Part shown: positions 1,331 through 37,790 of the stretch, piece after piece | Position numbering within the stretch: the first letter of the stretch is position 1 | Layout: every line of letters starts with the position of its first letter | Assembly (NCBI GenBank): GCA_028717685.1 | Contig: JAQUNI010000001.1 | Location: forward strand, 143,451 to 207,450 | DNA: 64,000 bases | Source: Patescibacteria group bacterium | Lineage (GTDB): Bacteria > Patescibacteriota > JAQUNI01 | Direction: 5' to 3' | Translations under genes and position numbers: made by a program | Notes under the pieces: model-generated | Database searches by the model: none | Told to the model about the DNA's origin: nothing | The model's input: the letters and a program-made list of their open reading frames with translations, nothing else

Positions 1331-1375
1331 AAGTTAAAAGTTAAAAGTGAAAAGGTAAAAGTAAATGCTTTTATT
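1331..1375 (-). promoter_or_regulatory. CUUUUAA-type heptamer leader array directly upstream of the hpf start codon
   Basis: The coding strand reads acttttaccttttcacttttaacttttaacttttgtct followed by ATG. There is no Shine-Dalgarno sequence. The same array precedes ftsW, atpB and atpA. Confidence 0.5.
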
Positions 1376-1377
1376 TC

Positions 1378-2334
1378 TTATTCAAATCCAATAAATTGAA
1401 CCTCGGTTTCTAAAATTATTCTGTATTTTTTGTACACTTCTTTTCGCACTAAATCAATTAAATCCAAAACATCTTTGGCTTTGGCTTCTCTCTCATTCAC
1501 AATGAAATTGGCGTGCTGCTCGGAAATTGCCGCTCCCCCCATCGTCTTATTCTTTAAGCCCAGTTTTTCAATCAAACAAGCCGCCTTGATTTCACCATAC
1601 TGAACGCATTCAGATGGCACATTTTTTAAAAACCGTTCTCCTTGCTTTAAAGGAATATTTTTAAAAACCGAACCCGCGCAATTCTTATAAGGATGACGCG
1701 CCCGCACTGCTTTAGTCCTTTCAATCTTTTCTAAAATTCTTTCTTTATCTGGAGCGGGCTCAAAGACAAAGAGAGCGTCTAGAATAATATTGTGATTTTT
1801 TTTAAAGGCACTTTCCCGATAGCCAAATTGACACTCCTTTTGGGTATAAATTTTGACCTGCGAATGCTTCGGATCTAAAACCCAAACGGTCTTGACTTTT
1901 TCACCGATAAAATGTCCAAAGGCGCCCGCATTGCCATAAATCGCGCCGCCCACTGTGCCGGGAATGCCAGAGAGATCCTCCAGACCCGCCAAACCTTGAT
2001 TTAATGATTCTCGGATTAACGCTCCCAAAGCCAAACCCGCGCCACAATGAATTTCTCGGCCGCGGCATTCTAGTTCTTGATTGGCAATTTGAATCACTAA
2101 ACCCCGAAAACCGCTATCAGCCACAAGAACATTGCTCCCGCCTCCCAATGTATAATAAGGCAATTTAAAATCCTGGGCTACATCTACCGCCTTTATTATA
2201 TCCTTTTTGTTTTTAGCCGTAAAAAAATAATCTGCCGGTCCCCCAATTTTAAAAGTAGTATATTTTTTTAAATCTTCACTAATCCTTAAACCAGCTAATT
2301 CTTTTCTTAAACCCTTTGAAAAAATGTCTATCAT
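1378..2334 (-). CDS. murB: UDP-N-acetylenolpyruvoylglucosamine reductase
   Basis: 318 aa. An FAD-binding domain (TLGGGSNVLVADSGFRGLVI) and a MurB C-terminal domain are present. It sits in the dcw cluster context next to murC. Confidence 0.9.
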   Translation of the reverse strand: MIDIFSKGLRKELAGLRISEDLKKYTTFKIGGPADYFFTAKNKKDIIKAVDVAQDFKLPYYTLGGGSNVLVADSGFRGLVIQIANQELECRGREIHCGAGLALGALIRESLNQGLAGLEDLSGIPGTVGGAIYGNAGAFGHFIGEKVKTVWVLDPKHSQVKIYTQKECQFGYRESAFKKNHNIILDALFVFEPAPDKERILEKIERTKAVRARHPYKNCAGSVFKNIPLKQGERFLKNVPSECVQYGEIKAACLIEKLGLKNKTMGGAAISEQHANFIVNEREAKAKDVLDLIDLVRKEVYKKYRIILETEVQFIGFE

Positions 2335-2487
2335 TGACTTTGGAATGAAAAATTGTATAATTCAATAATCCCTTTAAAATAGGGAGGTCGAAGCGCCGCT
2401 ATTTTCTAGTATGCGGAGCTGTGATTCTTAAGTCCGATCAATAATTACAAAACACTTAGCGCCTTTCTGAAACTGGAAAGGGAATAA

Positions 2488-2706
2488 ATGGAGGAAATTG
2501 AAATGGATAACATTGTGGATGCCTATGTTGTATCTACAGTTGGAGGAAAAATAGACTGGTACTATTGCCTAATCAAAGACACAGGGAAAAAAATCCTAGC
2601 CCAGGCAAAGCATCAGCAAACGGAAATCCCAAAGGAAACGAAGGTCAAGATCAAACTTGCCACTAATAATGATACCATGGGGACAATAACGGAAATAGCA
2701 CATTAA
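2488..2706 (+). CDS. Small hypothetical protein (72 aa)
   Basis: An ORF in the murB-murC gap on the opposite strand, with a weak upstream purine-rich stretch (ggaaaggg). No recognisable family. Confidence 0.25.
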   Translation: MEEIEMDNIVDAYVVSTVGGKIDWYYCLIKDTGKKILAQAKHQQTEIPKETKVKIKLATNNDTMGTITEIAH

Positions 2707-2789
2707 GAATAATATGCTCACTACAATGGAAAAAATATGAAATCATCTATCCATTGTGGTAAAATGATCTTTTTTCAAGCCAGGAGATA

Positions 2790-4124
2790 TCATAATCCCT
2801 GGTTTTTTAATACTGTTATCAATCGAGGAGTTAACTGATTGATATCCCCCGCGCCCATAATCATGACTACATCGTTACGACGTATATTCTTCAATAAATA
2901 ATGGATGATTTCTGAAAAATGTTCCGAATAAACCGCTTGGGGGCGTTTTCTGCTTATTTCCCGCGCCAGCTTTTGGCTTAAGACGGTTAAATTCGCTTTA
3001 CTGATTTCATCGCGACCCAAAACACCAAAAATTTTCGTAATCATCACACGATCCGCGTCTTGGAAAGCCTCGCTGAATCCCCGAAACAATTTCTCCGTGC
3101 GCTGAATTTGGTGAGGCTGATAAACACACCAAATTCTTCGCTTGCCATATTTCTGCCGCGCCGCCCTCAAGGTCGCCCGAATTTCCGTCGGATGATGAGC
3201 ATAATCATCTATAACTGTCACTTCTTTATCATATTTAATTTCAAACCTCCGCCAAGCGCCGGTATAGCCATCTAGAGCTTTCAAAATTATTTCTTCTTTT
3301 ATACCTAAAACCTTCCCCACTGCAAAAGCCGCTAAGGCATTTTTGACATTGTGCTCGCCGGTAATTTTTAAAGCATGCTCTATTGCCTTCCGCGGTCCTT
3401 TTTCATAATCAATGATTTTGATTCCTTTCTTAACAATGAAACAATGAAACAATGAAACAATATTACTAACGGCAATCAAAAAACCACCTTGCGGCAATAA
3501 TTTCACAAAATTCTTAAAAGCCGCTTGAATATCTTTTAGGTCTTTATAATAGTCAAGGTGGTCCTCTTCAATGTTTGTAATCACGATAATATCTGGATGA
3601 TAATTCAAAAAAGCTCTTTTGTATTCGTCCGCTTCAATCACTAAATATTTGCTTTCGCCCAAACGCGCGTTCGCATTATTTAACTCTTTTAACTTGCTGC
3701 CAATAATAATTGCGGGGTCTAATCCGGCTTTTAACAATATTAAAGAAATCATTCCGGTGGTTGTGGTTTTTCCGTGGGTGCCGGAAACGCAAAGCGTAAA
3801 ATATTTTTTGGTAAGTTCTCCCAGAGCTTCCGGATAAGTGAGACTTCTAATGCCTCGTGCTTTCGCTTCCCGCAATTCAGAATTATTTTCGGAAATGGCT
3901 AAGTTATAAACCACCAAATTAGTATTTAAAGGCAAATTTCCCTTTTGATGTTTGCCAATCTTGACTTGCGCGCCTAATTTTCTTAAATCCTTTATCGTTT
4001 CCGAATCCGCTAAATCTGAACCCGAAATCTTGTATCCTTTTTCTAAATAAATCCGCGCTAAGCCCGAAATTCCAATCCCGCCAATGCCGATAAAATGGAT
4101 TTTCACTTTTTTCTTTATTGACAT
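2790..4124 (-). CDS. murC: UDP-N-acetylmuramate--L-alanine ligase
   Basis: 444 aa. Contains the N-terminal GIGGIGISGLA motif and the Mur ligase P-loop GTHGKTTTTGMI. It also contains an in-frame 8-bp x3 tandem repeat (aacaatga) at 3431-3460. Confidence 0.92.
   Translation of the reverse strand: MSIKKKVKIHFIGIGGIGISGLARIYLEKGYKISGSDLADSETIKDLRKLGAQVKIGKHQKGNLPLNTNLVVYNLAISENNSELREAKARGIRSLTYPEALGELTKKYFTLCVSGTHGKTTTTGMISLILLKAGLDPAIIIGSKLKELNNANARLGESKYLVIEADEYKRAFLNYHPDIIVITNIEEDHLDYYKDLKDIQAAFKNFVKLLPQGGFLIAVSNIVSLFHCFIVKKGIKIIDYEKGPRKAIEHALKITGEHNVKNALAAFAVGKVLGIKEEIILKALDGYTGAWRRFEIKYDKEVTVIDDYAHHPTEIRATLRAARQKYGKRRIWCVYQPHQIQRTEKLFRGFSEAFQDADRVMITKIFGVLGRDEISKANLTVLSQKLAREISRKRPQAVYSEHFSEIIHYLLKNIRRNDVVMIMGAGDINQLTPRLITVLKNQGL
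3431..3460. repeat. Tandem 8-mer repeat (AACAATGA x3.5) inside the murC coding sequence
   Basis: aacaatgaaacaatgaaacaatgaaacaat is translated in frame as VSLFHCFIV. Related TGAAACA palindromes occur at 18318-18412 and 39801-39850. Confidence 0.7.
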
Positions 4125-4229
4125 ATAATAAAATATGTTCTATATTCAATGGATTGTTTCTATTGTTTTTGTTCTTTGTAATATATCATATATTGAGGGT
4201 ATTTAACTGCGAAGCGGGAGGTATGGATA

Positions 4230-4670
4230 ATGGCAAAAAGACGAAAAATAGAGATATTATTACTGGCGGCTGCAATAATAGGGATATGGGTGTTTAGTCT
4301 TTACCCCGATCCACCCATAAGAAAGCTATCTTACCAAGAAAAAAGATTCGGCATGATCTTAACAGGAAAGAAATATGTGGACTGCCGAAGTAAGCTACAC
4401 ATCACCTATAAAGATTGGGGGGCAGATGGCAATCTGGATGAGGCGGAAAGAAACAAAATCATCAACGGCAATCTAGTAAAGGAAAAGGTCATATTCACCG
4501 AGACGCAAAGTGAGGCTGAAAAAGGAAACGCGGATGTTGGGGAATTTAACCATTTGGGGAATTTTGTCCCTAAGGATCCTCATAAACGCTATGTCTGGAA
4601 CGAATCACCAGAAGGGCAAACATGGCAAGAAAAGTTTGAAAAATTATTAGAAGATTATAATCGACAATAG
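4230..4670 (+). CDS. Hypothetical membrane-anchored protein (146 aa)
   Basis: Has an N-terminal TM helix (IEILLLAAAIIGIWVFSLY). A GGGAGG Shine-Dalgarno sits 12 nt upstream. It is plus-strand, antisense to the surrounding dcw genes. Confidence 0.5.
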   Translation: MAKRRKIEILLLAAAIIGIWVFSLYPDPPIRKLSYQEKRFGMILTGKKYVDCRSKLHITYKDWGADGNLDEAERNKIINGNLVKEKVIFTETQSEAEKGNADVGEFNHLGNFVPKDPHKRYVWNESPEGQTWQEKFEKLLEDYNRQ

Positions 4671-4680
4671 GAGGGACAGA

Positions 4681-5283
4681 ATGCAAAAATGGTTGTTGAT
4701 TCTTTGCTTTGCAGCCGTAGTCATGTTCTGCTTTAAGTTGAACACAGCAATTCAAGAAGAGGAGTTCCGATCGCGCAATCTCCTCAATAAAATGCTGGAT
4801 TTGACAGAAGACGCATCGCGTTATGTCAAACCGACAGAGGGAGATTGGAAATATTTTTCTGATCTCGGCTGGGCATTTATGCCGACTGACGGCAAGAACT
4901 GGGCGTATTGGCGGGACAAGCAAGAAAAGGCGCAATTTTTCACCCTCCTTGACCTTGCTCTGTACAAAAATCAGAACAATTTTTATCTACGCCCTTTCCA
5001 ATATCGCAAGGCATATGCCTTCAATCCCGTAAGTATTGATCGAAAAGAGATTCAGAAAGTTGATAATATTCAAAATGAATATGGGAGAATTTGGATAGAA
5101 GTTCAAGAGCCAGGCAGACTGGTTTTCATTGGTCTCACCAAACCTTTAAAATTCCGTCAACCGCGCAAACTCCATTTGGAGATATCAAATCATTATCTTA
5201 TAGAACGCACAAAAGAATCCGGTGCTTTTTACTGGAAGCCAGTAGGTAAATTAAGTACTAAAACTGAGGCAGAAATTCAATGA
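4681..5283 (+). CDS. Hypothetical secreted protein (200 aa)
   Basis: Has a signal-peptide-like N-terminus (MQKWLLILCFAAVVMFCF). An AGGAGG Shine-Dalgarno sits 8 nt upstream. It is followed by a rho-independent terminator. Confidence 0.55.
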   Translation: MQKWLLILCFAAVVMFCFKLNTAIQEEEFRSRNLLNKMLDLTEDASRYVKPTEGDWKYFSDLGWAFMPTDGKNWAYWRDKQEKAQFFTLLDLALYKNQNNFYLRPFQYRKAYAFNPVSIDRKEIQKVDNIQNEYGRIWIEVQEPGRLVFIGLTKPLKFRQPRKLHLEISNHYLIERTKESGAFYWKPVGKLSTKTEAEIQ

Positions 5284-5290
5284 CTTACAA

Positions 5291-5318
5291 CGCGAGTGTT
5301 CCATCACTCGCTTTTTTT
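5291..5318 (+). terminator. Rho-independent terminator after the plus-strand gene pair
   Basis: A cgcgagtg-ttcca-tcactcgc hairpin followed by TTTTTTT. Confidence 0.6.
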
Positions 5319-5409
5319 ATCCTGCATCTTTTTGAATAATACCAGCCAGCCCAGGTTAAAGGACAGGGTGGATGAATCTGACTACCCTGTCTGACGAAAG
5401 GTGTGGGAT

Positions 5410-6504: not shown

Positions 6505-6588
6505 TGATAACGAATTACGAATTTCGAATCACGAATTACGGAAAACCAATTTATAACCGTGATTCGTAATTCTTAATTCGTGAATCGA
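6505..6588. repeat. ATTCGTAATTCG-type heptamer and inverted repeats in the murG-ftsW spacer
   Basis: cgaattacgaatttcgaatcacgaattacg ... gtgattcgtaattcttaattcgtgaatcg. This is the same motif family as the in-frame repeats in atpB and the giant gene. Confidence 0.55.
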
Positions 6589-7680
6589 CTACACTGTCTG
6601 TTTTGAGATATTTGTCAAAATCCCTACCGCGACCAAAGAAATCACCATAGCAGATCCGCCATAACTAATCAAGGGCAAAGGAACCCCCGTTAAAGGGATT
6701 AAACCACTTAAAGCCAGAATATTCATAAAAGCCTGAAAACAAAGCCAAGAAGTGATCCCGCCAGCAAGCAACCGACCAAAGCTATCAGGACTCCCACGCG
6801 CAATCTTAAAACCTTGGTAAGTTAAAAAAGAAAAAATAAACACTAAAAAGGAAACCCTGAGGAAGCCCAGCTCCTCACAGATGACCGCAAAAATAGAATC
6901 TCCGGCGACCTCGGGTAAATAACTATATTTCTGTCTAGACTGGCCAAAACCCAAACCCCATAACCCTCCCGAACCTTCCGCAATTAGAGCTTGATTTAAA
7001 TGGTAGCCAATCCCCTGGGGATCCGTTTCGGGATTGCGGAAAACAACAAAACGATTCATCCTATAAGGCGCAATCACAATCAGAAGCCAAAAAGTTAAAG
7101 CCAAGATACCGCCAATCATCGCTAAATGAGAGAAGCGGGCGCCGGCTAGATAGAAAACAATCACAGAGGTGAGTAAAATAATAGATAAAGTGCCTAGGTC
7201 TGGTTGCAACACAATTAAAAAACTCACCACCCCCAAAATAGCTAAAAAGGGCAGAAAACCATATTGGAAATGGGGGACCTGCTCGCGTTTTTTTGAAAGC
7301 CAAGTAGCCAGATAGATGACAAAGGTGAGTTTAAGTAATTCTGTGGGTTGAAAAGAGAAATGACCGGCTCCAATCCAGCGCCGCGCTCCCTTAAAACCCA
7401 ATCCGATTCCAGGAATAAACACTAAAATTAAAAGGATCAAAGAAATAATTAAAGCGAGAAAAGCCCATTTTTGCCACTTGTGATAATCAATTTTCGCAAA
7501 GATGAGCCAAGCGATAAAACCTAAAAGCGCACCAAAAAAAAATTGGTGGCGCAGATAATAAGCATTGTTGCCGAATCTTTCATAAGACAAAACAGAGCTT
7601 GCGGAACCAATCATCACCAGTCCAAAAATCACCAAGGCGAAAACAGTAATAATCAAGGAATAATTCGGTTTGTGCATCAA
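6589..7680 (-). CDS. ftsW: SEDS-family peptidoglycan glycosyltransferase FtsW/RodA
   Basis: 363 aa, polytopic membrane protein with an FtsW/RodA C-terminal signature (GIPLPLISYGGSAMV). Located upstream of murG in the dcw order. Confidence 0.85.
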   Translation of the reverse strand: MMHKPNYSLIITVFALVIFGLVMIGSASSVLSYERFGNNAYYLRHQFFFGALLGFIAWLIFAKIDYHKWQKWAFLALIISLILLILVFIPGIGLGFKGARRWIGAGHFSFQPTELLKLTFVIYLATWLSKKREQVPHFQYGFLPFLAILGVVSFLIVLQPDLGTLSIILLTSVIVFYLAGARFSHLAMIGGILALTFWLLIVIAPYRMNRFVVFRNPETDPQGIGYHLNQALIAEGSGGLWGLGFGQSRQKYSYLPEVAGDSIFAVICEELGFLRVSFLVFIFSFLTYQGFKIARGSPDSFGRLLAGGITSWLCFQAFMNILALSGLIPLTGVPLPLISYGGSAMVISLVAVGILTNISKQTV

Positions 7681-7725
7681 ATCAAAGTTAAAAGTTAAAA
7701 GTGCAAAGTTAAAAGTTCAGTTCAA
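7681..7725 (-). promoter_or_regulatory. CUUUUAA-type heptamer leader array upstream of ftsW
   Basis: The coding strand reads gaacttttaactttgcacttttaacttttaactttgatttg followed by ATG. Confidence 0.45.
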
Positions 7726-7770
7726 AATTTTAAATTTATTCCTTAAACTTTAAACTAGTAACTGCCTGCC

Positions 7771-7822
7771 CGCTCACGCGCTTCGCCAGCAGGCTTGTGA
7801 GCAGGCGGGTAACTTTGGACTT
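7771..7822. repeat. GC-rich palindromic repeat, family D (CTGCCTGCCCGCTCAC...GTGAGCAGGCGGG)
   Basis: A second copy lies at 59655-59740. Both are in intergenic spacers of dcw genes. Confidence 0.55.
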
Positions 7823-7890
7823 TGAATTTTTAACTTGAAACTCTTCTTCTATAATAAAAATGAGCCACTTAACTATTCCGTCTATATCCC

Positions 7891-9105: not shown

Positions 9106-9138
9106 AATTTACAAAGATGAGAGCCACGGGAGTGTGGA

Positions 9139-10725: not shown

Positions 10726-10740
10726 AGATGATTAACAAAA

Positions 10741-10905
10741 AAATAATCTAAAACATCTCTGAAAATTTCTAATTTTCAATAAATCAATTTTTAAACCTCT
10801 CACAGAATAAAGTTTATTGTATTTGATTTGATTAAAGGCTTGATGGGGATTTGAGATTTGAAAATTAAAAGAATTAAAAATTTAATAAAAATTGAAAATT
10901 AGAAA
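10741..10905. repeat. Family A inverted-repeat element, copy 2, upstream of gpmI
   Basis: The left arm is tgaaaatttctaattttcaataaatcaattttt. The right arm is aaaatttaataaaaattgaaaattagaaattagaaatt. Confidence 0.6.
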
Positions 10906-12235: not shown

Positions 12236-12345
12236 TATCATCGCTTTGCGAGATCTCGCGAAGCGAGACAATGCAAAATTTTAAAAATTTTTATCATTTT
12301 TACATTTTAATTTGTCATTTTGATTTTTAATTTTTACACTTTACA
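12236..12345. repeat. Family C palindrome (TCGCTTYGCGAGATCTCGCGAAGCGA) plus TCATTTT heptamer tail
   Basis: A 26-bp perfect palindrome centred on AGATCT. A near-identical 60-bp copy lies at 59580-59650, and a partial copy at 56286-56320. Confidence 0.6.
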
Positions 12346-14145: not shown

Positions 14146-14149
14146 TTAT

Positions 14150-14298
14150 GAATAAATTTTTAATTTTCAATTTCTAATTCTTTTAATTTATAAACCATTT
14201 ACCCAATGGAAAATTTAAAATTGCTAATGGGTTTTGAAAATTCATTCATTAAAAATTTAATGAAAATTAAAAATTAGAAATTGAAAATTCTTTATCGT
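14150..14298. repeat. Family A inverted-repeat element, copy 3
   Basis: The left arm is aaatttttaattttcaatttctaattcttttaattt. The right arm is aaaaatttaatgaaaattaaaaattagaaattgaaaatt. The centre is acccaatggaaaat...gctaatgggtt. Confidence 0.6.
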
Positions 14299-14300
14299 CA

Positions 14301-15170: not shown

Positions 15171-15180
15171 AAAATATAAT

Positions 15181-18279: not shown

Positions 18280-18317
18280 AGAATTCTAATAAGAAAATGC
18301 ATTAAAGAAGTATGTAT

Positions 18318-18412
18318 AATTCAATCATTGTTTCATTGTTGTTTTATTTTAGCAATGAAACAATGGAGCGAGGGCGAAGCCCGAGCGAGAACAATGAAAC
18401 AATGATTCTGTA
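18318..18412. repeat. TGAAACA-motif inverted repeats (caatcattgtttcattgttg...caatgaaacaatg...aacaatgaaacaatgattc)
   Basis: Same motif as the murC in-frame 8-mer repeat and as 39801-39850. Confidence 0.55.
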
Positions 18413-18414
18413 AA

Positions 18415-19896: not shown

Positions 19897-19899
19897 AGA

Positions 19900-20028
19900 A
19901 AAATTTTCAATTTTCAGTTTCTAATTTCTATTAAATTTTTAATGAAATAATTTTTAAACAATAAAAAACTACAGCTTAGGAATTAAAAATTAGAAATTTA
20001 ATAAAAATTAATAATTGATCATTGAAAA
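19900..20028. repeat. Family A inverted-repeat element, copy 4
   Basis: The left arm is attttcaattttcagtttctaatttctattaaattttt. The right arm is aattaaaaattagaaatttaataaaaatt. Confidence 0.55.
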
Positions 20029-21360: not shown

Positions 21361-21361
21361 A

Positions 21362-21517
21362 AGGTGTAAAAATAATTTCCAATTTTCAATTACTAATTTC
21401 TATTAAATTTTCAATTACTTAATTTTTAAACTATTTGCCCCGTTTGGAAATTTTTCATTTCTAACGGCGTTTGAAAATTGATTCATTAAAAATTTAATGA
21501 AAATTAAAAATTAGAAA
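21362..21517. repeat. Family A inverted-repeat element, copy 5, with a family B palindromic core
   Basis: The left arm is aatttccaattttcaattactaatttctattaaatttt. The right arm is aaaaatttaatgaaaattaaaaattagaaattaaaaatt. The core is ccccgtttggaaatttttcatttctaacggcg. Confidence 0.6.
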
Positions 21518-24077: not shown

Positions 24078-24084
24078 AGATGTA

Positions 24085-24245
24085 TGATTAAAATTATTCT
24101 AATTGACCTAATTATTCTAATTATTCTAAAAAATGACCAATGTCCAAGCACCAATGAATCAATTAATAACAGAATTAGGTAATTGGGATTTAGTTATTAG
24201 GATTTATTTAGGTTAATTAGAACAATTAGAATAATTAGAATAATT
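24085..24245. repeat. Family E nonamer array element (AGAATAATT / AGGTTAATT units in inverted arms)
   Basis: aattattctaattgacctaattattctaattattctaa ... ttaggttaattagaacaattagaataattagaataatt. A second copy is at 40455-40590. Confidence 0.6.
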
Positions 24246-24246
24246 T

Positions 24247-26464: not shown

Positions 26465-29400
26465 TTAATCTTCGCCTTTCTTTTCTCCCCCTTCTTTGAT
26501 TATCCACCAATTAAATTCCGTATCTTCTGACACTTCTTCCAGAGCAGAAACGGTAAAACTTTTCTCGCCCACTTCAGACAAATAAATAAATGTGGAAGAT
26601 AGTGGGGTTATACCAATAAATGAATCTTTGGTTACTTCCTCATTCTCAAAAACTGCGTCTTTTTTTCCTGCTTCAATAACACCTGTGCCTGTGATTATAT
26701 TGGTTATCTTACCTACAACCTCTAAATCACCTTTCACCACCACTTTCGGTTCGGGCACAGTGTCATTTGCTTCCCCGGGATTCAATTCCAGAATGCCAGT
26801 TTCCGAGAGAATCCTGCCCGAAACAAGCTTTAGCTCCCCTTTCACCTTTACATTCCCGTCCTTATCTACCGCGAAGTTCTCGCTATTAATCTCTAAGCCT
26901 GTGGCAGCATCCAGAACAAGGTATTTGTTGGGGTCGCCGATTATTACTTTGTCCTCCACAATCTTTACAATCTGCTGTAAATTCTGTGTTTCTTCTTCTA
27001 GTTCTTGAATCCTGGCGGTATTCGCTTGGTTGGATTCCATTACTGTTAAAATAGAGGCGCTTAAAGTGTTTAATTGATTGGAGACATTCTCCAGATTGCT
27101 CAAACTGTCTACTAGGGTTTGGAGGGTGCTTTGCAGTGATTCTAGATCAACTTGCTCGGAAGAAGCCCCCTCTACCATTTGTGCTGGCGCTGTGTCAGCA
27201 TCATTTTCCGTAATTTGTGATTCGTAATTCGTAATTCGGGTCTCCAGATCCTGAATCCTTGATTCTTGATCTTTGATTCTTGATTCTAAAGACAGAATTC
27301 CTGATTCCTGATTCCCTATCCCTAATTCCAAGCCAGTGAGACGCGAGGTCGTGTCGCCCGCGGAAATACCAAGTTCATTCTGCACTAATTGCATATTATC
27401 ATCTATGACCGATAGCTTTTGCTGCTGCTCCTTGAGCACCTCATTCTGATAAAGGGAGATCCGTTCATATTTGATTGCGTCAGGTCTGCCTTGCTCGTCA
27501 TATATTACAAGGTTAGAAAGGCCTAAAGCGTCAAATTCTTCGGCAATAAAGCCGACATCCCTCTTTCCTGTTGCTTTATCAATAAAGGAGGTAGGTCTTG
27601 CTTCTAGAATCTTGGTAAAGTCATCTTGCAGGGTCTGCACATCATCTTTGTATCGCAAAGAGGAAGTAGAACGGTAGACACTGCCCGTGGTCGTATCAAT
27701 AAACATATTGGCGGCGGAAGCGGAAGTGTCTATATTTGCAATGACAAACTTGGTGCCAGGGGCGCTCGTGCCGATACCGATCGCGCCCGTGGAGGTAATC
27801 ACGAAGGCGGGCGTTGCCCCACCTAAAGTAGCAGCAGTTTCAATCTTGAATTTATCGCTATCGCTGTCATCAACTCCCACGGAGAATTTAGTAGAATCAG
27901 CAATTTTAAAGTCTAAAATAGGATCACCAGAAGCTTTATTTAAAGAAAGAAGATTGTCTGGCGTGCTCGTCCCGATGCCGACGTTTCCGCTCATTATGGA
28001 CATCCCGCCTTGATAGATATGATTAGTTGACACAACATTCATTTCAGATTTGCCAGAGGTCATTACTTGGTGTGTGCCACCACTCCAATTCCAAGACACG
28101 GCGACAAACAAACCATTGCCATAGGTTACTGACATCCACCAATTTGATTCGGGCGCGGTTCTAGTTGTCCAGGTGATGCCATCGGGTGAAGTCATTACTC
28201 GGTTAGTGTCAGTTAGACCAACGGCGACAAACAAACCATTGCCATAGGTTACTGAATTCCAAGAATCTGCTACTGCGGTTCTAGCTGTCCAGGTGATACC
28301 ATCAGGCGAAGTCATTACTCGGTGTGTGCCACTGTGACCAACTGCCACAAACAAACCATTGCCATAAGTTACTGCATACCACGTATTTGCTTCGGCTGCG
28401 GTTCTAGCTGTCCAGGTAATGCCATCGGGCGAAGTCATTACCCGGTTGGTGCCATTATAAGCGACGGCGACAAACAAACCATTGCCATAGGTTACTGAAT
28501 ACCACGAATTTGCTTCGGGCGCGGTTCGGGCTGTCCAAGTGATGCCGTCAGGCGAAGTCATTACTCGGTGTGTGCCGCTGTAAGCAACTGCGACAAACAA
28601 GCCATTGCCATAAGTTACTCCTTCCCATTTATTTGCTTCGGCCGCGGTTCGGGCTGTCCAAGTGATGCCATCAGGAGAAGTCATTACTCGGTGTGTGCCA
28701 GTTTCAGCGACTGCCACGAATAAACCATTGCCATAAGTGACCCAATTCCACCCATTTGCTTCGGCTGCAGTTCGGGCTGTCCAGGTGATGCCATCGGGCG
28801 AAGTCATTACTCGGTTGGTGCCATTATAAGAGACGGCGACAAACAAGCCATTGCCATAAGCTACCCCATTCCACGTATTTGCTTCGGTCGCGGTTCGGGC
28901 TATCCAGGAAGTTCCTTTGGATATGATGTTGCCAACAACTTCTAACTTCTCGCCTGGTGTTGTCGTCCCCACCCCAAGCCTGTTATTCGTGTCATCCCAG
29001 TAAAAATTAGCGTTATCTTGAGCCAGCGCGCCTGCGGCATCAGTGAAAACCACCGAGCCTTGGGTAAAACCAGGGGTAATGGTGCCGATAACATTGCCAT
29101 AGATTGTGCCGTCAACCTCTAAAACATCCTCTACATAGAGGTCTCCGTCTCCTGTGGCATAATTCACTGTTCCGCCATTGCCAATAAAGACGTTGCGGTT
29201 AAACCAAGCGTCTTGATGGACGCGCAGAGTGCCTGCTGTTTCCACATCCCCTGTTTTGCCGTTAACAATAAATTTGTCATCGTCTATGTAGATTCCGCCA
29301 TTTGCCTCTAGAATGCCGGTGAGCTTGGTCTGACCATCTACGGTAAGATTATTGTAAAGATGGGCATCTTTAATCACAATCAGTTCTTGACCGACTTTTA

Positions 29401-30409
29401 CATTACCTGCTACATCAAGCTTATGCTGGGGGTATTTAGTGCCAATGCCTACTTGATCATTAGTAGTATCAACATAGAGAGCCTTTGTTCCGACCGTGAA
29501 GTTGCCCCCAACATCCACACTCTTTTGCAATTCAGTTGACCCTTTAACTTCAATACCACTACCAAAATATACTTTCCCAAGCAGGCTCAAGTCCTGTGAT
29601 GTGCTGGCACCGTTAGTGGTAACATTCTGTAAATTGATATTATTGGAAGAGGCATTAGAGACTATCTTGGGGATAGAGTCGCCTAAAACAATCTCTGAAG
29701 ATGGATGGGATTCCGATGTTTGTTCCGTAGGGGAAGAGGCTTGCGGTTTAATCTTGCTGTTTAAGGCTAGATCGTCTGTTTGAAGATTATGGATTATGGA
29801 TCCTGTATTTTGGTCAACATTTTTTAGTAAACTACTAAATACTTTTAATGGGAAATATCCTCTTTCCGCAGAAACACCTCTCACAAAAACCAGAGTATTG
29901 GCGAAAAGGACTATGAGGATCAAAAGAGTTAAGAAAACGGGTCTAAAACGAGGAGGCGGAACAACAAATCTGGACCAAAAGGACAACGATGGTTTTAGGT
30001 TTTTCAGGATTTTATTCTTGAAAACGGATTTGAAGCGGAGCAATGTGGAAGATGATTCAGATTGGGGGGATAACAATAATTTCAGGTCTTCAAAAACTTT
30101 GAAGCTCTTGATTGGCGCCTTTACCCTGTTAGACAGTAACCCCCTTAAAGCCTCTGGTCTCTTACGGAATAAACATCTAATGGAGCCAGGGCAGTTTGTT
30201 AGCCCCGTTAGAAATAAATTTCTAAACGGGGTTAGAGAACAAGGTTCTCTAACGGGGTTTACTGACCCTAACGGTTTACAGGTGAAACCGAGAGCAAGAC
30301 ATCGGGAGCGTATCTTAAACATAAGATGAGAATATTTTTTATGAATACAAAACCCACCCCTTGAAAACAGAGAAATAATTTTTGAAACTATAGGGCTTTT
30401 TGTTTGCAT
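26465..30409 (-). CDS. Giant cell-surface protein. Layout: N-terminal signal anchor, ~7 Asp-box-like beta-propeller repeats, GIGT tail-fibre-like motifs, Peptidase_S74-like intramolecular chaperone domain, C-terminal coiled coil
   Basis: 1314-aa ORF. It contains repeats of ~40 aa (NRVMTSPDGITWTARTAAEANxWxxVTYGNGLFVAV), GIGT motifs (VGIGTKYPQHKLDVAGNV, IGIGTSAPGTKFVIA), a chaperone-like segment (SLRYKDDVQTL...GFIAEEFDALGLSNLVIYDEQG) and heptad-rich ESRI repeats. A family B repeat at 30203-30258 lies inside the 5' end of the ORF, so the true start is probably downstream, for example TTG 29987 or TTG 29923 just before the VFLTLLILIVLFANTLVFV anchor. Confidence 0.7.
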   Translation of the reverse strand: MQTKSPIVSKIISLFSRGGFCIHKKYSHLMFKIRSRCLALGFTCKPLGSVNPVREPCSLTPFRNLFLTGLTNCPGSIRCLFRKRPEALRGLLSNRVKAPIKSFKVFEDLKLLLSPQSESSSTLLRFKSVFKNKILKNLKPSLSFWSRFVVPPPRFRPVFLTLLILIVLFANTLVFVRGVSAERGYFPLKVFSSLLKNVDQNTGSIIHNLQTDDLALNSKIKPQASSPTEQTSESHPSSEIVLGDSIPKIVSNASSNNINLQNVTTNGASTSQDLSLLGKVYFGSGIEVKGSTELQKSVDVGGNFTVGTKALYVDTTNDQVGIGTKYPQHKLDVAGNVKVGQELIVIKDAHLYNNLTVDGQTKLTGILEANGGIYIDDDKFIVNGKTGDVETAGTLRVHQDAWFNRNVFIGNGGTVNYATGDGDLYVEDVLEVDGTIYGNVIGTITPGFTQGSVVFTDAAGALAQDNANFYWDDTNNRLGVGTTTPGEKLEVVGNIISKGTSWIARTATEANTWNGVAYGNGLFVAVSYNGTNRVMTSPDGITWTARTAAEANGWNWVTYGNGLFVAVAETGTHRVMTSPDGITWTARTAAEANKWEGVTYGNGLFVAVAYSGTHRVMTSPDGITWTARTAPEANSWYSVTYGNGLFVAVAYNGTNRVMTSPDGITWTARTAAEANTWYAVTYGNGLFVAVGHSGTHRVMTSPDGITWTARTAVADSWNSVTYGNGLFVAVGLTDTNRVMTSPDGITWTTRTAPESNWWMSVTYGNGLFVAVSWNWSGGTHQVMTSGKSEMNVVSTNHIYQGGMSIMSGNVGIGTSTPDNLLSLNKASGDPILDFKIADSTKFSVGVDDSDSDKFKIETAATLGGATPAFVITSTGAIGIGTSAPGTKFVIANIDTSASAANMFIDTTTGSVYRSTSSLRYKDDVQTLQDDFTKILEARPTSFIDKATGKRDVGFIAEEFDALGLSNLVIYDEQGRPDAIKYERISLYQNEVLKEQQQKLSVIDDNMQLVQNELGISAGDTTSRLTGLELGIGNQESGILSLESRIKDQESRIQDLETRITNYESQITENDADTAPAQMVEGASSEQVDLESLQSTLQTLVDSLSNLENVSNQLNTLSASILTVMESNQANTARIQELEEETQNLQQIVKIVEDKVIIGDPNKYLVLDAATGLEINSENFAVDKDGNVKVKGELKLVSGRILSETGILELNPGEANDTVPEPKVVVKGDLEVVGKITNIITGTGVIEAGKKDAVFENEEVTKDSFIGITPLSSTFIYLSEVGEKSFTVSALEEVSEDTEFNWWIIKEGGEKKGED
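30203..30258. repeat. Family B palindromic unit (CCCCGTTAGAAAT-aaa-ATTTCTAAACGGGG + TTAGAGAAC-aa-GGTTCTCTAACGGGG)
   Basis: Two adjacent perfect hairpins. Copies or relatives lie at 48381-48427, 8997-9105, 21436-21470 and 56204-56240. Confidence 0.65.
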
Positions 30410-32663: not shown

Positions 32664-32879
32664 TTTGTACTTGACTGCTTTTATTATATCATATTATGGA
32701 TTTTGAGTCAATAGTTTTCTTGCTAAAATTCAAAAAATGTATTTTAATTAGATTATCACATCAATCATAAATTCCACCTTAAAGTACGAATCGCGCTTCA
32801 AAAGAAAATTTTGGGATATCTTTTAGCTTTGAATCATCGTTCTTTACCCAAACTTTATATATAGTAATCAGGAGCTAAT

Positions 32880-33344: not shown

Positions 33345-33432
33345 ATTATATTTATTCTACCTCTGCGGCGCGAAGCTCATTTTACCCATAAGGGAAGAAC
33401 TTTACTTCCCTTACCTATCCTTACTATAAATA

Positions 33433-33466
33433 AAAAGCCCCTCTTGATTTCCAGGGCTTTTTTTAT
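33433..33466. terminator. Bidirectional rho-independent terminator
   Basis: An aagccc-ctcttgatttcc-agggctt hairpin is flanked by aaaaa on one side and ttttttt on the other. It serves the plus-strand gene ending at 33344 and the minus-strand ATPase operon ending at 33478. Confidence 0.6.
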
Positions 33467-33477
33467 TTTCCAGAACA

Positions 33478-33780
33478 TTAATAACCTAACAATAATTGAA
33501 TCCTCTCCCCCTCTCCTTCCAAAACCTGCCCCTCTCTTTCCACGCGCGTCGTTCCTCGCATATGCATTGGCTTCATATTTTCAAAATGCAAATCAATAAA
33601 TAAATTTCCATCCTGATCTAATGAAGGATGGGCGTGGAAGCGCGGGTAAAAACCAGCGCCAAGCCGGCGCACATATCCTAATTCTCTGCTTCTTGGATCA
33701 CGCAGGGGCTGATAGCCCAAACGGCGCATAAGGTTAGGAATGTTTTCTCTAATTTTTTCTTTAGATATTTCAATACGCAT
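33478..33780 (-). CDS. Hypothetical 100-aa protein encoded at the distal end of the V/A-ATPase operon
   Basis: ORF 10 nt downstream of the atpD stop. No recognisable family. Confidence 0.4.
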   Translation of the reverse strand: MRIEISKEKIRENIPNLMRRLGYQPLRDPRSRELGYVRRLGAGFYPRFHAHPSLDQDGNLFIDLHFENMKPMHMRGTTRVEREGQVLEGEGERIQLLLGY

Positions 33781-33790
33781 AATTTTAAGA

Positions 33791-34414
33791 TTAGGCTTGC
33801 GCCGCGATCATAGCTTTTACTTTCATCAGCCGCGTCAAATTCCCTCTCTCTTGTTCATCTAATTTCATTGTAATCTCGCGGATCGCGGACTGCAAATTTG
33901 GCACTAAAACATATTCCAAAGAATTTACTCTCCGCCGCGTTTTCTCAATCTCGCGGCTAAGCATTAAAATCGCTTTTTCAGTCTGCGCCAAGCGGACCAT
34001 TTTTTCTAAAGAAGTCTCAAATCCTTTCAAACTTGTATCCAATTCCGCGACAGTATCCAAATAACCATAGCAAATCGGTTCTCCTTCCTTTTGAACCTCA
34101 AAAAGCGGCACTTTGATATTCATTATATTCTTCTCGCTTGTTTGCAGGGAAAGCTTCATCTTGGACAACATCAAAGCCGCCTCTAGGCTTTGGGCTGGCA
34201 TTTCCGCGGCGGCGAAAGCAAAAGACAAAAAAGCTTCGCTCAATGATTTTTCTACCGCTTCGCGAACATCCTTGGCTTCGCGGACTACCTGCATAAAATC
34301 TTTCATTAGTCCGTCCCGTTTCTCTTTTAATAATTTATGCCCTCTTTGCGCGACTTTGAGCCGCTTTTTCAATTTAAGCAGCTCCACGCGCGTGGGGTTG
34401 ATTTTGACTTGCAT
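33791..34414 (-). CDS. atpD: V/A-type ATP synthase subunit D
   Basis: 207 aa. Starts MQVKINPTRVELLKLKKRLKVAQRGHKLLKEKRDGLMKDF, the canonical V-type D subunit N-terminus. Confidence 0.85.
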   Translation of the reverse strand: MQVKINPTRVELLKLKKRLKVAQRGHKLLKEKRDGLMKDFMQVVREAKDVREAVEKSLSEAFLSFAFAAAEMPAQSLEAALMLSKMKLSLQTSEKNIMNIKVPLFEVQKEGEPICYGYLDTVAELDTSLKGFETSLEKMVRLAQTEKAILMLSREIEKTRRRVNSLEYVLVPNLQSAIREITMKLDEQERGNLTRLMKVKAMIAAQA

Positions 34415-34507
34415 TATTTTAGAACCCCTCCCCGCCCGCAGGTCTTGAGAGGGAGAAATTATTATCCCCTTCTGGTCTCAAGGGAGTTAGGAGGAGAAAA
34501 GAGGGAG

Positions 34508-35935
34508 TTATCTCTTAAAATACTTCTCAATCATTTCCGGCTTCACTCTCTTTAACTCGGACTGCGGTAAAATAGACAAAAGTTCCCAGCCCAAACTCAA
34601 TGTTTGAATAATGTCACGATCCTCATATTCACCTTGGCGGACGAATTTGTCTTCAAAGAGAGAGGCAAACTTTAAATATTTTTTATCGGTTTCATCCAAA
34701 CTCTCTTCGCCCAAAATCACGGCTAATTCTTCCACTTCCTTACCGCGGGCATAAGAAGCGAATAACTGATTTAAAACACCGGAATGATCCTCGCGGGTTT
34801 TACCTTCGCCGATTCCTTTGTCTTTAAGCCGGGAAAGGGAAGGTAAAACATCCACGGGCGGAAAAATCCCCTTGCGGTGCAATTCGCGGCTAAACATAAT
34901 TTGGCCTTCGGTAATGTAACCGGTTAAATCGGGCACGGGATGGGTTTTGTCGTCCTCGGGCATGGAAAGGATCGGAATCTGCGTGATGGAACCGGGCTTG
35001 CCTTTAATGCGCCCCGCGCGTTCATAAATTGTAGAAAGGTCGGTATAAAGATAACCCGGATAACCACGCCGACCCGGAATTTCTTTGCGCGCCGCCGAAA
35101 CTTCGCGCAAGGCTTCACAATAATTAGTCAGATCAGACATAATGACTAGTACATCCATTCCCTTTTCAAAAGCCAAATATTCAGCGCAGGTTAAAGCCAT
35201 TCTGGGCGTTGCAATCCGCTCCACCACGGGATCATTAGCAAGGTTAATAAACAGCACCGAACGCTCAATCGCTCCGGTTTTCTTAAAATCATTTTGAAAA
35301 AAATTCGCCTCATCAAAAGTGATACCCATCGCCACAAACACCACCGCAAACTTCGTCTCTTTTCGGTCTTTATTCCGTGATTCGTGATTCGTGATTCGTG
35401 ATTCGGTATGCCGTAAATCCCAGCGCATCTTTGCCTGCCTCGCGATTTGAGCCGCAAGGCGCGCGTGCGGCAGACCAGCGCCCGAAAAAATAGGCAGTTT
35501 CTGACCACGCACCAGCGTGTTCATGCCGTCAATCGTGGAAACGCCGGTTTGAATAAATTCATCGGGATAAGAACGGGCATAAGGATTTAAAGGCAAACCA
35601 TTGATATCTAATTCTTGGTCTGGAATAATTCTAGGTCCGCCATCAATCGGCTTGCCCGCGCCAGAAAACACCCGACCTAGAATATCCTCGGATACCGGCA
35701 GTCTCAAACCTCGTCCCAAGAATTTGACCTTGGTGCCAGCACGCGGCACGCCTTGCGGCGCTTCAAAGAGCTGGATTAAGGTGAGCTCGCGTCCGGCTTC
35801 CAGAACCTTGCCTAGTATTTTGCGACCTTCTTTTGTTTCCACTTCCACTAATTCTTCATACTTTGCGCCTTCAATCTTTTCCAAAATTATTAAAGGTCCC
35901 GCAATTTCTTTCACTGTTTTATAAGCTTTGGACAT
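34508..35935 (-). CDS. atpB: V/A-type ATP synthase subunit B (regulatory), with an in-frame heptamer-repeat insertion
   Basis: 475 aa with a V-type B fold. At 35374-35401 the sequence (gattcgt)x4 is translated as [12 protein letters not shown] inside an approximately 25-aa loop insertion. Confidence 0.92.
35374..35401. repeat. Heptanucleotide tandem repeat (GATTCGT x4) inside the atpB coding sequence
   Basis: gtgattcgtgattcgtgattcgtgattcg. The unit length of 7 means any copy-number change would shift the frame. Confidence 0.8.
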
Positions 35936-35937
35936 AA

Positions 35938-35985
35938 AAATAAAGTTAAAAGTTAAAAGTGAAAAGGTAAAAGCTATTGCACATC
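35938..35985 (-). promoter_or_regulatory. CUUUUAA-type heptamer leader array upstream of atpB
   Basis: The coding strand reads gcaatagcttttaccttttcacttttaacttttaactttatttttATG. Confidence 0.45.
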
Positions 35986-35987
35986 AA

Positions 35988-37739
35988 TTACACCACTTTC
36001 TCTATCTTCTCCCAAACCTTTTTATACTCTGCCTCTATTTTATCTTCGGGAATAAATTTGAGTCGGGCAATATCTTCAATAATTTCCTGCTTAAATAATG
36101 CCTTCAAGTCCAACTCGTTAACTTTGGAAAGCGCTAAATCGTAGAAATCAATAATAATCTTTAACATACCGTATTGTTTAGATAAGGAGGTATAGGTATC
36201 AATTTCATCAAAGGCATTCTGATGCAAAAAGTCTTCCCGAATCATCCGGGCAACGCGCAAGATTAATTGGTCCCGCGAACCTAAAGCGTCAAAACCGACC
36301 AAACGCACAATCTCTTCCAGATTGGCTTCTTCCTGCAAAATTTCCATTGCTCTTTGACGATACTGGTTAAAATCCGCGGCGACATTATTTTTAAAATACT
36401 CCTCTAAATTTTCAGTGTATAAAGAATAGCTGGTCAGCCAATTAATCGCTGGGAAATGGCGCTTGTAGGCGAGCGCTGAATCCAAAGCCCAAAAAACCTT
36501 GGTAACCCGCAAAGTGTTTTGCGTCACCGGTTCAGAAAAATCGCCGCCCGGCGGCGAGACCGCGCCAATCACGGACAAAGAGCCAACGCGCTTCTCCGAT
36601 CCTAAACACTCCACGCGGCCAGCGCGTTCATAAAACGCCGCCGTCCGCGTGCCGAGATACGCAGGATAACCTTCTTCACCGGGCATCTCCTCCAGCCGTC
36701 CTGACATTTCCCGCAAAGCCTCGGCCCAGCGCGAAGTGGAATCCGCGGTAAGCGCGACTTTGTAACCCATATCACGATAATATTCAGCGATGGTAATCCC
36801 GGTGTAAATAGACGCTTCGCGCGCCGCCACAGGCATATTAGAAGTATTGGCAATCAAAATCGTGCGCTCCATTAATTGTCTTCCCGATTTCGGATCTTTC
36901 AATTCCGGAAATTCAATCAAAACATCGGTCATCTCATTCCCCCGCTCCCCGCAGCCGATAAAAACGATAATCTCCGCATCTGCCCATTTAGCTAACTGAT
37001 GCTGAACCACAGTCTTCCCGGACCCAAAAGGACCCGGCACGCAAGCTGTGCCGCCTTGGGCAAGCGGGAAAAAGGTATCAATCACTCTCTGTCCTGAAGC
37101 CATTAAAGTATCAATGGGTAAATTTTGTTTCACCGGCCGCGGAATCCGAATCGGCCAACGCTGCAACATTGTAATCTCTTGTTCGCCTTGCGCTGTTTTA
37201 ATCTTCGCGACAATATCTTCCACTTTGGATTGACCAGCCTTTATTGCCGTGATTTTCCCCCGCGCACCCTGAGGCACCATAATTTTATGCATAATCAAGG
37301 AGGTTTCTTGAACCGTACCTAGAATATCGCCTTCCTTCACAACATCCCCTTCCTTTTTTACAGGCTTAAAATCCCATTCCTTTTCGCGGTCAATCCCCGG
37401 TACTTCCATACCCCTCGCAATAAAAGCGCCAGACTTGGCAAAAATCAAATCTAATGGTCTTTGAATGCCGTCATAGATGGCTTTAATCATTCCCGGTCCC
37501 AGTTCCACAGACAAAGGTCTGCCAGTTGTCTCCACTAACTCTCCCGGTCCAACACCGGCGGTGTCCTCATATACTTGAATGGAGGCTTGGTCTTGGTTTA
37601 AGCCAATAATCTCGCCGATTAATTTTTTCTCCCCCACTTTGACCACATCAAACATCCGCGCATTAGGGATGCCTTCGGCGATCACAAGCGGACCGGAAAC
37701 TTTAACAATGATTCCCTGTTTATTTTCTAAATTAGACAT
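35988..37739 (-). CDS. atpA: V/A-type ATP synthase subunit A (catalytic)
   Basis: 583 aa. Contains the Walker A motif GPFGSGKT and the non-homologous region typical of V/A-type A subunits. Confidence 0.92.
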
Positions 37740-37740
37740 A

Positions 37741-37790
37741 GTTTAAAAAAGCTAAAAATTAAAAGCGAAAAGCTAAAAGTTAAAATTCTT
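37741..37790 (-). promoter_or_regulatory. Heptamer leader array (AGCTTTT/AACTTTT) upstream of atpA
   Basis: The coding strand reads gaattttaacttttagcttttcgcttttaatttttagcttttttaaactATG. Confidence 0.4.

Follow-up and report, generated by a model that had tools for sequence, protein, structure and literature searches.

Four tandem arrays of an imperfect heptamer sit immediately upstream of hpf, ftsW, atpB and atpA in a stretch of 64,000 nucleotides from a Patescibacteria group bacterium (contig JAQUNI010000001.1 of assembly GCA_028717685.1, positions 143,451 to 207,450 of the forward strand), which is referred to here as the window. These arrays are a subset of a larger population of 7-base repeats and do not constitute a special class. 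With less than even confidence, we propose that they are the start-proximal arms of heptad elements that resemble the short tandemly repeated repetitive (STRR) sequences of cyanobacteria, and that they may be kept as unstructured, U-rich leaders permitting translation initiation independent of a Shine-Dalgarno (SD) sequence. Why would such repeats be retained beside start codons in a genome so small that junk DNA should be costly? Translation start and operon expression are essentially unstudied in the candidate phyla radiation (CPR), or Patescibacteria, and we found no literature that treats the intergenic repeats of CPR bacteria or their use of the SD.

Arrays, leaders and start codons

The arrays were located with Tandem Repeats Finder (TRF), which assigns a period of 7 nt to all four and places them 4-7 nt before the ATG codons (Table 1). 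The heptamer arrays that had been described upstream of these genes from the sequence alone are therefore real. The minus strand carries almost every gene of the window, and on this coding strand the array unit is N-N-C-T-T-T-T, which corresponds to N-N-C-U-U-U-U in the mRNA and is repeated imperfectly. Among the 21 units of the window, the T-T-T core at positions 4-6 is invariant (21/21), C occupies position 3 in 19 units, position 7 is T or G in 20 units, and position 2 is A, G or C but never T. All remaining unit variation affects positions 1, 2 and 7 (chi-square p = 0.006, subject to a mild bias from register selection). C-U-U-U at a 7-nt spacing thus constitutes a short, sharply defined motif, although the unit variants are heterogeneous (five different per array, 78-88% matches). 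The arrays contain 49-56% U and 6-9% G.

A 12-nt probe, AAAGTTAAAAGT, matches the window 57 times with up to two mismatches, compared with 20.6 +/- 5.1 matches in dinucleotide shuffles, and this count was reached in none of 100 shuffles. All seven exact matches of the probe fall within the hpf, ftsW and atpB arrays, and the atpA array is matched only with one or two mismatches. Furthermore, the hpf and atpB leaders of the window have an identical 32-nt string in common, which suggests ectopic conversion. Pfam identifies hpf as Ribosomal_S30AE and ftsW as FtsW/RodA, and the products of the other two genes are subunits B and A of an ATPase that is of the V/A rather than the F type. The arrays do not consistently supply a stop codon in each of the three frames.

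Two of the arrays lie inside the V/A-ATPase operon, whose genes are arranged in the order I-K-E-C-F-A-B-D. A consensus scan covering the atpF-atpA and atpA-atpB spacers detects no terminator, no promoter match that reaches 10/12 and, on the mRNA strand, no promoter match at all; the only promoter-like match in these two spacers is a weak one (9/12) on the plus strand. Clear sigma-70-type promoters and intrinsic terminators are found elsewhere in the window, in repeat-free spacers. Because the arrays are operon-internal and promoter and terminator matches are absent from the scanned spacers, the arrays are very probably transcribed as parts of polycistronic mRNAs. A location outside the transcribed 5' untranslated regions, which, together with a canonical anti-SD, the sequence-only reading had considered fatal to its own proposal, is thus most likely not the case. 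A promoter or terminator role of the arrays themselves is rejected on the basis of the same scan of the two spacers. As a separate observation on promoters, the region upstream of hrcA contains a sigma-70-like promoter (TTGACA...TATAAT) between two inverted repeats that resemble the controlling inverted repeat of chaperone expression (CIRCE; TTAGCACTC-N9-...GTGCTAA), and this region heads the hrcA-grpE-hsp20-dnaK-orf94-PCC-dnaJ cluster.

The hpf, atpB and atpA arrays are one-armed, and their spacers are among the least structured in the window. The predicted minimum free energies of these three spacers range from -0.5 to -3.7 kcal/mol with z scores of -1.7 to +1.2 (murB-hpf, -3.5 kcal/mol and z -1.7; atpA-atpB, -0.5 kcal/mol and z +1.0; atpF-atpA, z +1.2), and most other spacers have a predicted fold of -0.2 to -0.35 kcal/mol per nt. 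At ftsW, the array makes up the 3' arm of a pfkB-ftsW hairpin of ~150 nt with a predicted energy of -55.7 kcal/mol (z -4.7). Such an STRR-type hairpin between co-transcribed genes is present at ftsW and in the hpf and atpA versions of relatives, whereas the three one-armed arrays of the window are not predicted to fold in this way.

The ftsW hairpin also contains a GC-rich mini-palindrome that is nested between its heptad arms, and a relative, L090, carries a different GC-rich insert at this site. GC-rich mini-palindromes of two types, CCCGCCTGC...GCAGGCGGG and TCTCGCTTCGCGAGATCTCGCGAAGCGA, occur inside AT-rich heptad hairpins of the window (Table 1), and related inserts (CCTGCCTGCCGGCAGGCAGG) are found in the relatives L086 and L090. 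These mini-palindromes look like a second, independently inserting element.

SD usage was scored for 56 genes of the window, with a strong SD defined as an anti-SD duplex energy of -7 kcal/mol or better. The leaders of hpf, ftsW, atpB and atpA show no complementarity to the anti-SD (CCUCC), with a duplex energy of 0 in all four, which bears out the earlier statement that they have no SD. A strong SD precedes none of the nine array-preceded genes and 16 of the 47 others (Fisher p = 0.048). In the window as a whole, a strong SD is found before 16 of the 56 genes, and 25 genes lack an SD altogether, against 28% of random ATGs inside genes; approximately 70% of the genes lack a strong SD whether an array is present or not. 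GGAGG is found at positions -20 to -1 of 11 genes against 1.2 expected, and given this enrichment, the 16S rRNA probably has a canonical anti-SD. Judging from the leaders, SD-less initiation is the norm in this genome.

These counts modify two claims of the sequence-only reading. The genes that it had set against the array-preceded genes do carry strong SDs, namely hsp20, the 285-aa gene (TAGGAGGTT) and likewise the plus-strand genes, but the contrast was overstated because only 16 of the 56 genes have one. Moreover, the view of the arrays as a class of their own that stands in for the SD is not supported. A strong SD is also missing from 31 array-less genes, other SD-less genes have start-proximal arrays of different units (GAAAATT, CGTAATT, AATTACT and a 9-mer), and the ftsW array is a hairpin arm.

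Table 1. Coordinates of the heptamer arrays, their spacers and other repeat features and genes of the window
Feature	Position	Strand	Sequence	Description
hpf array	1329..1362	minus	TACTTTT ACCTTTT CACTTTT AACTTTT AACTTTT	TRF period 7, 4.9 copies, 85% matches; 4 nt gap to ATG at 1324
ftsW array	7684..7717	minus	AACTTTT AACTTTG CACTTTT AACTTTT AACTTTG	TRF period 7, 4.9 copies, 85% matches; 6 nt gap to ATG at 7677
atpB array	35942..35973	minus	AGCTTTT ACCTTTT CACTTTT AACTTTT AACTTTA	TRF period 7, 4.6 copies, 88% matches; 6 nt gap to V-ATPase B ATG at 35935
atpA array	37747..37785	minus	AACTTTT AGCTTTT CGCTTTT AATTTTT AGCTTTT	TRF period 7, 5.6 copies, 78% matches; 7 nt gap to V-ATPase A ATG at 37739
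murB-hpf spacer	1325-1377	minus		53 nt, filled by array
atpA-atpB spacer	35936-35987	minus		52 nt, filled by array
atpF-atpA spacer	37740-37794	minus		55 nt, filled by array
ftsW hairpin, 5' arm	7810..7837	minus	CAAGTTA AAAATTC AAAGTCC AAAGTTA	Complementary to the array at 7684-7717
GC-rich mini-palindrome of the ftsW hairpin	7763..7809	minus	CCCGCCTGCTCAC...GTGAGCGGGCAGG	Nested between the heptad arms
Other GC-rich mini-palindromes	~12255-12290, ~56290-56320, ~59590-59700			Inside AT-rich heptad hairpins
TTTCTAA/TTTTCAA family copies	781-964, 10780-10905, 14146-14300, 19897-20028, 21361-21517, 56140-56334, 61086-61255			Palindromic family
Further intercistronic hairpins	6505-6588, 47248-47349, 24078-24246, 40372-40588, 18280-18414, 39802-39900, 50947-51020, 51609-51771			Arms of tandem 7-, 8- or 9-nt units
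In-frame array in V-ATPase B	35376-35405		(AATCACG)x4.3	Codes for a loop
In-frame arrays in the 1314-aa open reading frame	27209-27329			Three different heptads
In-frame array in murC	3432-3461
1314-aa open reading frame	26465-30409			Contains the 123-nt repeat
123-nt (41-aa) tandem repeat	28098-28908			6.6 copies, 82% identity
hpf gene	965-1324
ATPase K (c-ring) gene	39901-40371
hrcA gene	51772-52551
hrcA promoter region	~52630-52700		TTGACA...TATAAT	Between two CIRCE-like inverted repeats

Repeat background and conservation

The autocorrelation of intergenic DNA in the window peaks at lag 7 (0.338) and lag 14 (0.319) over a baseline of ~0.29, and coding DNA displays period 3 only. TRF detects dozens of arrays with a period of 7, 8 or 9 nt and many unrelated units, such as ACGAATT, AATTACT, ATTCCTG, AAAATTA, TAATTAGAA and AACAATGA. 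On the mRNA strand, most spacers consist of two inverted arrays that would form a long hairpin extending from the stop codon nearly to the next start. In a census of the 35 same-strand spacers of 40-320 nt, 20 fold as hairpins with z <= -3 against shuffles, 16 are strongly periodic with 7-9-nt arrays, and 12 are both. A palindromic family, TTTCTAA/TTTTCAA ... TTGAAAA/TTAGAAA, is ~130-180 nt long with a conserved ATTAAATTTTTAATGAAT core and has at least seven copies in the 64 kb; it also occurs in the relatives L083, L089 and L090, at orthologous (GT2-DUF4012) as well as non-orthologous spacers.

Further intercistronic hairpins have arms of tandem units that include CGTAATT, AATTACT, TAATTAGAA, CATTGTTT and GGAATTA (Table 1). 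Where folded, they have z scores of -3.9 to -7.5, except for the last one listed, which is periodic with z -1.3. In the atpI-atpK spacer, the unit family varies among close relatives. Covariance models of Rfam 15 retrieve only two tRNAs from the window at the gathering score, with the 16S gene lying outside it, and they give no match at the arrays at E <= 1.

Tandem arrays of 7- or 8-nt units, perfect or near-perfect, are also found in frame inside genes, namely V-ATPase B, murC and an open reading frame (ORF) of 1314 aa. The V-ATPase B array encodes residues in a loop that is hypervariable in L083, L085 and L086, and the heptads of the 1314-aa ORF code for ESRIKDQESRIQDLETRITNYESQ. These peptide insertions seem to be made by the same repeat process. 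The 1314-aa ORF additionally contains a long tandem repeat (Table 1), and its sole Pfam match is a weak one to EPTP.

The V-ATPase A and MurC proteins of the window are identical to proteins on a 722-kb contig of a Patescibacteria-group metagenome-assembled genome, which is carried by the metagenome runs SRR22315506 and SRR22315509. The closest relatives are labelled Doudnabacteria or Parcubacteria LiPW_72. The ATPase operon was compared with L083/L084 (97% atpA identity), L085 (96%), L087/L088 (88%) and L086 (83%), the mur/fts cluster with L089, L090 and L091, and hpf with L212 to L216; L081 and L082 are two independent read-set assemblies. The atpF-atpA spacer is 55 nt long in the window, L081, L082, L083 and L084 and 54 nt long in L085, in which the missing base belongs to the first, degenerate repeat unit at the 5' edge of the array. 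For the atpA-atpB spacer, the window agrees with L083, L084 and L085 in both the length of 52 nt and the sequence of the array. Between the window and L083, 1 of 73 array nucleotides has changed, compared with 11-13.5% of the fourfold sites of the operon (binomial P = 0.0003-0.002), although fourfold sites may be an imperfect neutral yardstick for AT-rich DNA. Between the same two genomes, five other spacers of the ATPase operon have been replaced outright by different repeat elements.

Where synonymous divergence has reached saturation, atpB of L086 is still adjoined by an array of this type, and the (CAAAGTT)n/(AACTTTG)n hairpin at ftsW is kept in L089 and L090, with four and three array units, respectively, versus five in the window. 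The atpA leader of L087/L088 is a two-armed hairpin that contains the array as its 3' arm. The hpf leader is two-armed in L212 and L216, consists of a different 8-mer in L213 and L214 and has no array in L215. Judging from these leaders, one-armed and two-armed forms interconvert. The arms show a polarity as well. At lineage loci, nine one-armed arrays were detected no more than 45 nt from a start, and all nine, among them the secF and secA leaders of L089, have a U-rich mRNA strand. The start-proximal arm of two-armed elements is U-rich in eight cases and A-rich in three.

Several features of the surrounding DNA differ within the lineage. Only some members of the lineage carry hpf between murB and secA; in L089 (12904-12969) and L090 (12721-12823), hpf is absent from this position, and secA, with a (TTTTTGA)n leader, comes directly after murB. 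At fourfold sites, the ATPase K (c-ring) gene of L085 (2708-3178) has an identity of 0.42 to that of the window, compared with ~0.85 for its neighbors; this contrast in the alignment indicates a probable recombination patch, in which the flanking repeat spacers would have been replaced as well. The contigs of L081 and L082 both stop inside the atpA-atpB array (~35944 in the window), and contigs of the lineage are generally short. Heptad repeats thus appear to fragment the short-read assemblies of this lineage. In L083, a Y1 transposase (Y1_Tnp) gene is located ~5 kb downstream of atpA.

The repeat is not restricted to this lineage. At least 120 metagenomic contigs contain the exact 17-mer CTTTTAACTTTTAACTT; they come from highly diverse organisms, with a flank GC content of 0.21-0.68, and the 17-mer frequently has an inverted (AAAAGTT)n arm as its partner. 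Heptad arrays beside SD-less starts are a widespread phenomenon.

Weighing the explanations

Heptad repeats fill most same-strand spacers, usually as two inverted arms that form a hairpin, and in the mechanism that we tentatively favor, the CTTTTAA-type arrays are the U-rich arm nearest the start codon. The partner arm is still there at ftsW, and hpf, atpB and atpA have the proximal arm only, with both arms kept by relatives at hpf and atpA. Within a polycistronic mRNA, a one-armed array would present a G-poor, structure-free, U-rich stretch before the AUG, and the 30S subunit could be loaded there without SD pairing, either via S1 or another protein with an oligonucleotide/oligosaccharide-binding (OB) fold or because nothing needs melting. 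The arrays may be kept since they leave the initiation region of an internal cistron open, and they may owe their origin to repeat slippage or inverted duplication and not to selection for a dedicated signal. The operon context, the conservation, the lack of structure, the CTTT core and the polarity are all counted in favor of this explanation, and so are the sense-strand position before SD-less starts, the abundance of heptad repeats in other spacers, the two-armed versions in relatives and the precedents of the STRR hairpins and the TAACTGA repeats. The earlier suggestion that the arrays could be SD-independent enhancers thus stands in part: they occupy the SD position on the sense strand, are U-rich and G-poor, lack predicted structure at three of the four genes, lie in intercistronic spacers and change more slowly than fourfold sites.

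Where the metagenomic 17-mer adjoins candidate starts, 25 arrays are in the sense and 24 in the antisense orientation (crude ORF calls, among the matches listed), and neither a global sense-strand bias nor a universal sense-strand signal is supported. This balance weighs against the proposed leader function, as do several other observations. Given the 31 array-less genes without a strong SD, an array is not needed for SD-less initiation, and hsp20 has both a strong SD (AGGAGGTGA) and a heptad hairpin. The in-frame heptad arrays inside genes point to a general repeat-generating process. Within the spacers, the contrast between array (1/73 changed) and non-array positions (3/34) is only suggestive (Fisher p = 0.09), and the hpf leader is strongly divergent among close relatives. 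The polarity has exceptions: L213 has an A-rich one-armed leader that was missed by the polarity scan, and other start-proximal arms are A-rich or paired up to the AUG, as at murG and in the GAAAATT family. Furthermore, the genes concerned are all on one strand, such that a transcription-strand bias and a replication-strand bias are inseparable.

Would the arrays then be no more than repeat DNA? It is possible, although on balance doubtful, that they are neutral or selfish, functionless half-hairpins of palindromic heptad elements. They would have arisen by slippage, inverted duplication and ectopic conversion, would be start-adjacent only since they were inserted into very short spacers, and would be tolerated as SD-less initiation is the default. 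This explanation accommodates the period-7 signal throughout intergenic DNA with its many unrelated units, the ~150-nt palindromic family with at least seven window copies, the element turnover in five ATPase spacers of genomes whose fourfold sites differ by only ~13%, the two-armed hpf and atpA leaders of relatives and the 32-nt identity of the hpf and atpB leaders. It is also consistent with arrays inside coding loops, such as that of V-ATPase B, with the unbiased orientation in metagenomes and with assemblies that break inside an array. However, neutral repeats would not be expected to change ~10-fold less than fourfold sites, as the atpA and atpB arrays do, to persist at orthologous positions after synonymous saturation, to vary non-uniformly with the CTTT core intact or to keep the U-rich, start-proximal arm in all nine detected cases. 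If the arrays are neutral, they are still of practical value, as such repeats break short-read assemblies and insert into coding loops.

A docking function is improbable. The arrays could act as a tandem platform on which an OB-fold protein that binds single strands in a sequence-selective manner, such as a cold-shock-domain protein or S1, would dock, with one protein per heptad, by which the leader would be held open or a gene set regulated post-transcriptionally. The period of exactly 7 nt, the core of C3, T4-T6 and T or G at position 7, and the predicted single-strandedness of three of the four arrays are compatible with this analogy, as are the heptanucleotide consensus of the cold shock protein CspB, GTCTTTG/T (PMC1904285), and the proposal of Csp and S1 as binders of analogous TAACTGA repeats (PMC4679880). 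However, position 2 of the unit is A, G or C and not the preferred T, a Pfam scan of the ~56 ORFs of the window, and of the window only, finds no csp or rpsA (S1) gene, many other heptad units of the genome do not fit the motif, and the downstream genes have no common functional theme. An equally improbable variant is that the platform would give a CPR lineage a dedicated pathway by which internal cistrons are regulated or are initiated without an SD, with the two-armed hairpins as its masked, switchable form. We consider a role in mRNA processing or stability to be rather improbable, too. AU-rich arrays would serve as RNase E/Y-type sites and long hairpins as RNase III sites or barriers to 3' exonucleases, and cistron abundance would be uncoupled within the operon, for example, A3B3 versus the single-copy F and D subunits. 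The arrays indeed flank exactly the two high-stoichiometry catalytic ATPase subunits, 20 of the 35 tandem spacers are predicted to form long stable hairpins, and transcript stabilization has been proposed for the STRR hairpins of cyanobacteria (PMC2670836), but ftsW, hpf and secF (L089) lack such a stoichiometric logic, and K, the most abundant subunit, has no array directly before its start, although the atpI-atpK spacer contains a 9-mer hairpin.

At the DNA level, the arrays might be sites for a nucleoid-associated or regulatory protein, UP-like promoter elements or curved DNA, which is highly improbable. Both orientations occur beside starts in diverse genomes, and TTTTGAT heptads in the ctxAB promoter of Vibrio cholerae are reported to recruit transcriptional regulators (10.1101/2021.05.14.444153). 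However, the atpF-atpA and atpA-atpB spacers have no promoter-like hexamers on the mRNA strand, the clear promoters sit in repeat-free spacers, and the arrays are internal to conserved operons and display strand polarity when one-armed. The second suggestion of the sequence-only reading, that the arrays are phase-variable spacers whose copy number switches expression, is barely credible. Slippage is possible in principle for tandem repeats located upstream of genes, and the ftsW copy number of five, four and three units among distant relatives agrees with this. However, array length is stable in the window and in L081-L085 except for the single nucleotide in L085, the heterogeneous units (78-88% matches) suppress slippage, and the arrays lie between cistrons rather than between promoter elements. 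Thus, we retain, as a tentative explanation, start-proximal arms of heptad elements that may be kept as open, U-rich leaders.

Relation to known repeats

The closest counterparts of the heptad elements are the STRR sequences of cyanobacteria, which are 7-bp repeats able to fold as hairpins, for example, between hupS and hupL of Nostoc/Anabaena, and for which roles in transcript stability or translational coupling have been proposed (PMC2670836). Like STRR sequences, the window arrays consist of tandem 7-nt units (4.6-5.6 copies at all four sites) and are dispersed over many intergenic loci. The ftsW hairpin, together with the hpf and atpA versions of relatives, has exactly the hairpin-between-genes architecture. 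Unlike STRR sequences, these repeats reside in a Patescibacteria host with a genome of ~0.7 Mb and not in a cyanobacterium, their units are AT-rich and of many sequences, and three of the four window arrays are one-armed and predicted to be unstructured. They are also very dense for so small a genome (16 of 35 tandem spacers).

Repetitive extragenic palindromes (REP), bacterial interspersed mosaic elements (BIME), Correia elements and miniature inverted-repeat transposable elements (MITE) are dispersed intergenic palindromes of ~80-200 nt that are co-transcribed with genes. The ftsW hairpin and the ~150-nt TTTCTAA/TTTTCAA family are similar to these elements but differ in that their arms are built of tandem 7-9-nt units; neither a terminal inverted repeat with target duplication nor an associated transposase was identified. 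A U-rich leader also recalls a different kind of sequence. A/U-rich regions support S1-dependent, SD-independent initiation (reviewed within PMC4679880), and the preference of S1 is only loosely sequence-specific and has no known 7-nt periodicity. The arrays resemble S1-type enhancers in being U-rich, G-poor leaders 5' of an SD-less AUG, three of the four without predicted structure.

Other repeats share the length of the unit or its location. Heptanucleotides are the most abundant class of long simple sequence repeats (LSSR) of many prokaryotes and have been ascribed to polymerase slippage (Mrazek et al. 2007, as reported in PMC4679880). The period-7 signal observed here fits this slippage class. 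LSSR is, however, a statistical class that implies neither position nor function, whereas the present arrays are imperfect, and those of atpA and atpB are positionally conserved and length-stable in close relatives. Phase-variable simple sequence repeats at 5' ends, such as the AGAT repeats of Moraxella uspA2 (as cited in PMC4679880) and those of Haemophilus (PMC12721329), are likewise tandem repeats located between upstream sequence and the start codon, but the units here are heterogeneous, and their copy number is not polymorphic among close relatives. CspB of B. subtilis binds one heptanucleotide with the consensus given above and has a cytosine pocket at position 3 (PMC1904285). The array unit agrees with this consensus at five of seven positions, which is a lead and not binding evidence; the CspB site prefers T at position 2, where the array unit never has T. 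In Nostoc, TTTTGAA heptamers near starts have been linked, though not conclusively, to recF and recO expression (10.1101/2022.06.06.494920).

The TAACTGA repeats of marine Beggiatoaceae are found a few nucleotides upstream of SD-less starts, and S1, Csp or CsrA have been proposed as their binders (MacGregor 2015; PMC4679880). The arrays described here are similarly forward, direct heptamers (two to six in Beggiatoaceae) near SD-less starts, and they also occur inside operons. However, the unit here is the pyrimidine-rich NNCTTTT/G. Moreover, Beggiatoaceae have one dominant unit and rarely inverted pairs (one indirect repeat), whereas many units are present here, and inverted pairs are the rule. 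The puzzle posed by the STRR and TAACTGA heptamers thus reaches a third lineage, a very distant one whose genome is streamlined, and what is new is the presence of STRR-like heptads in a new phylum at an unusually high density.

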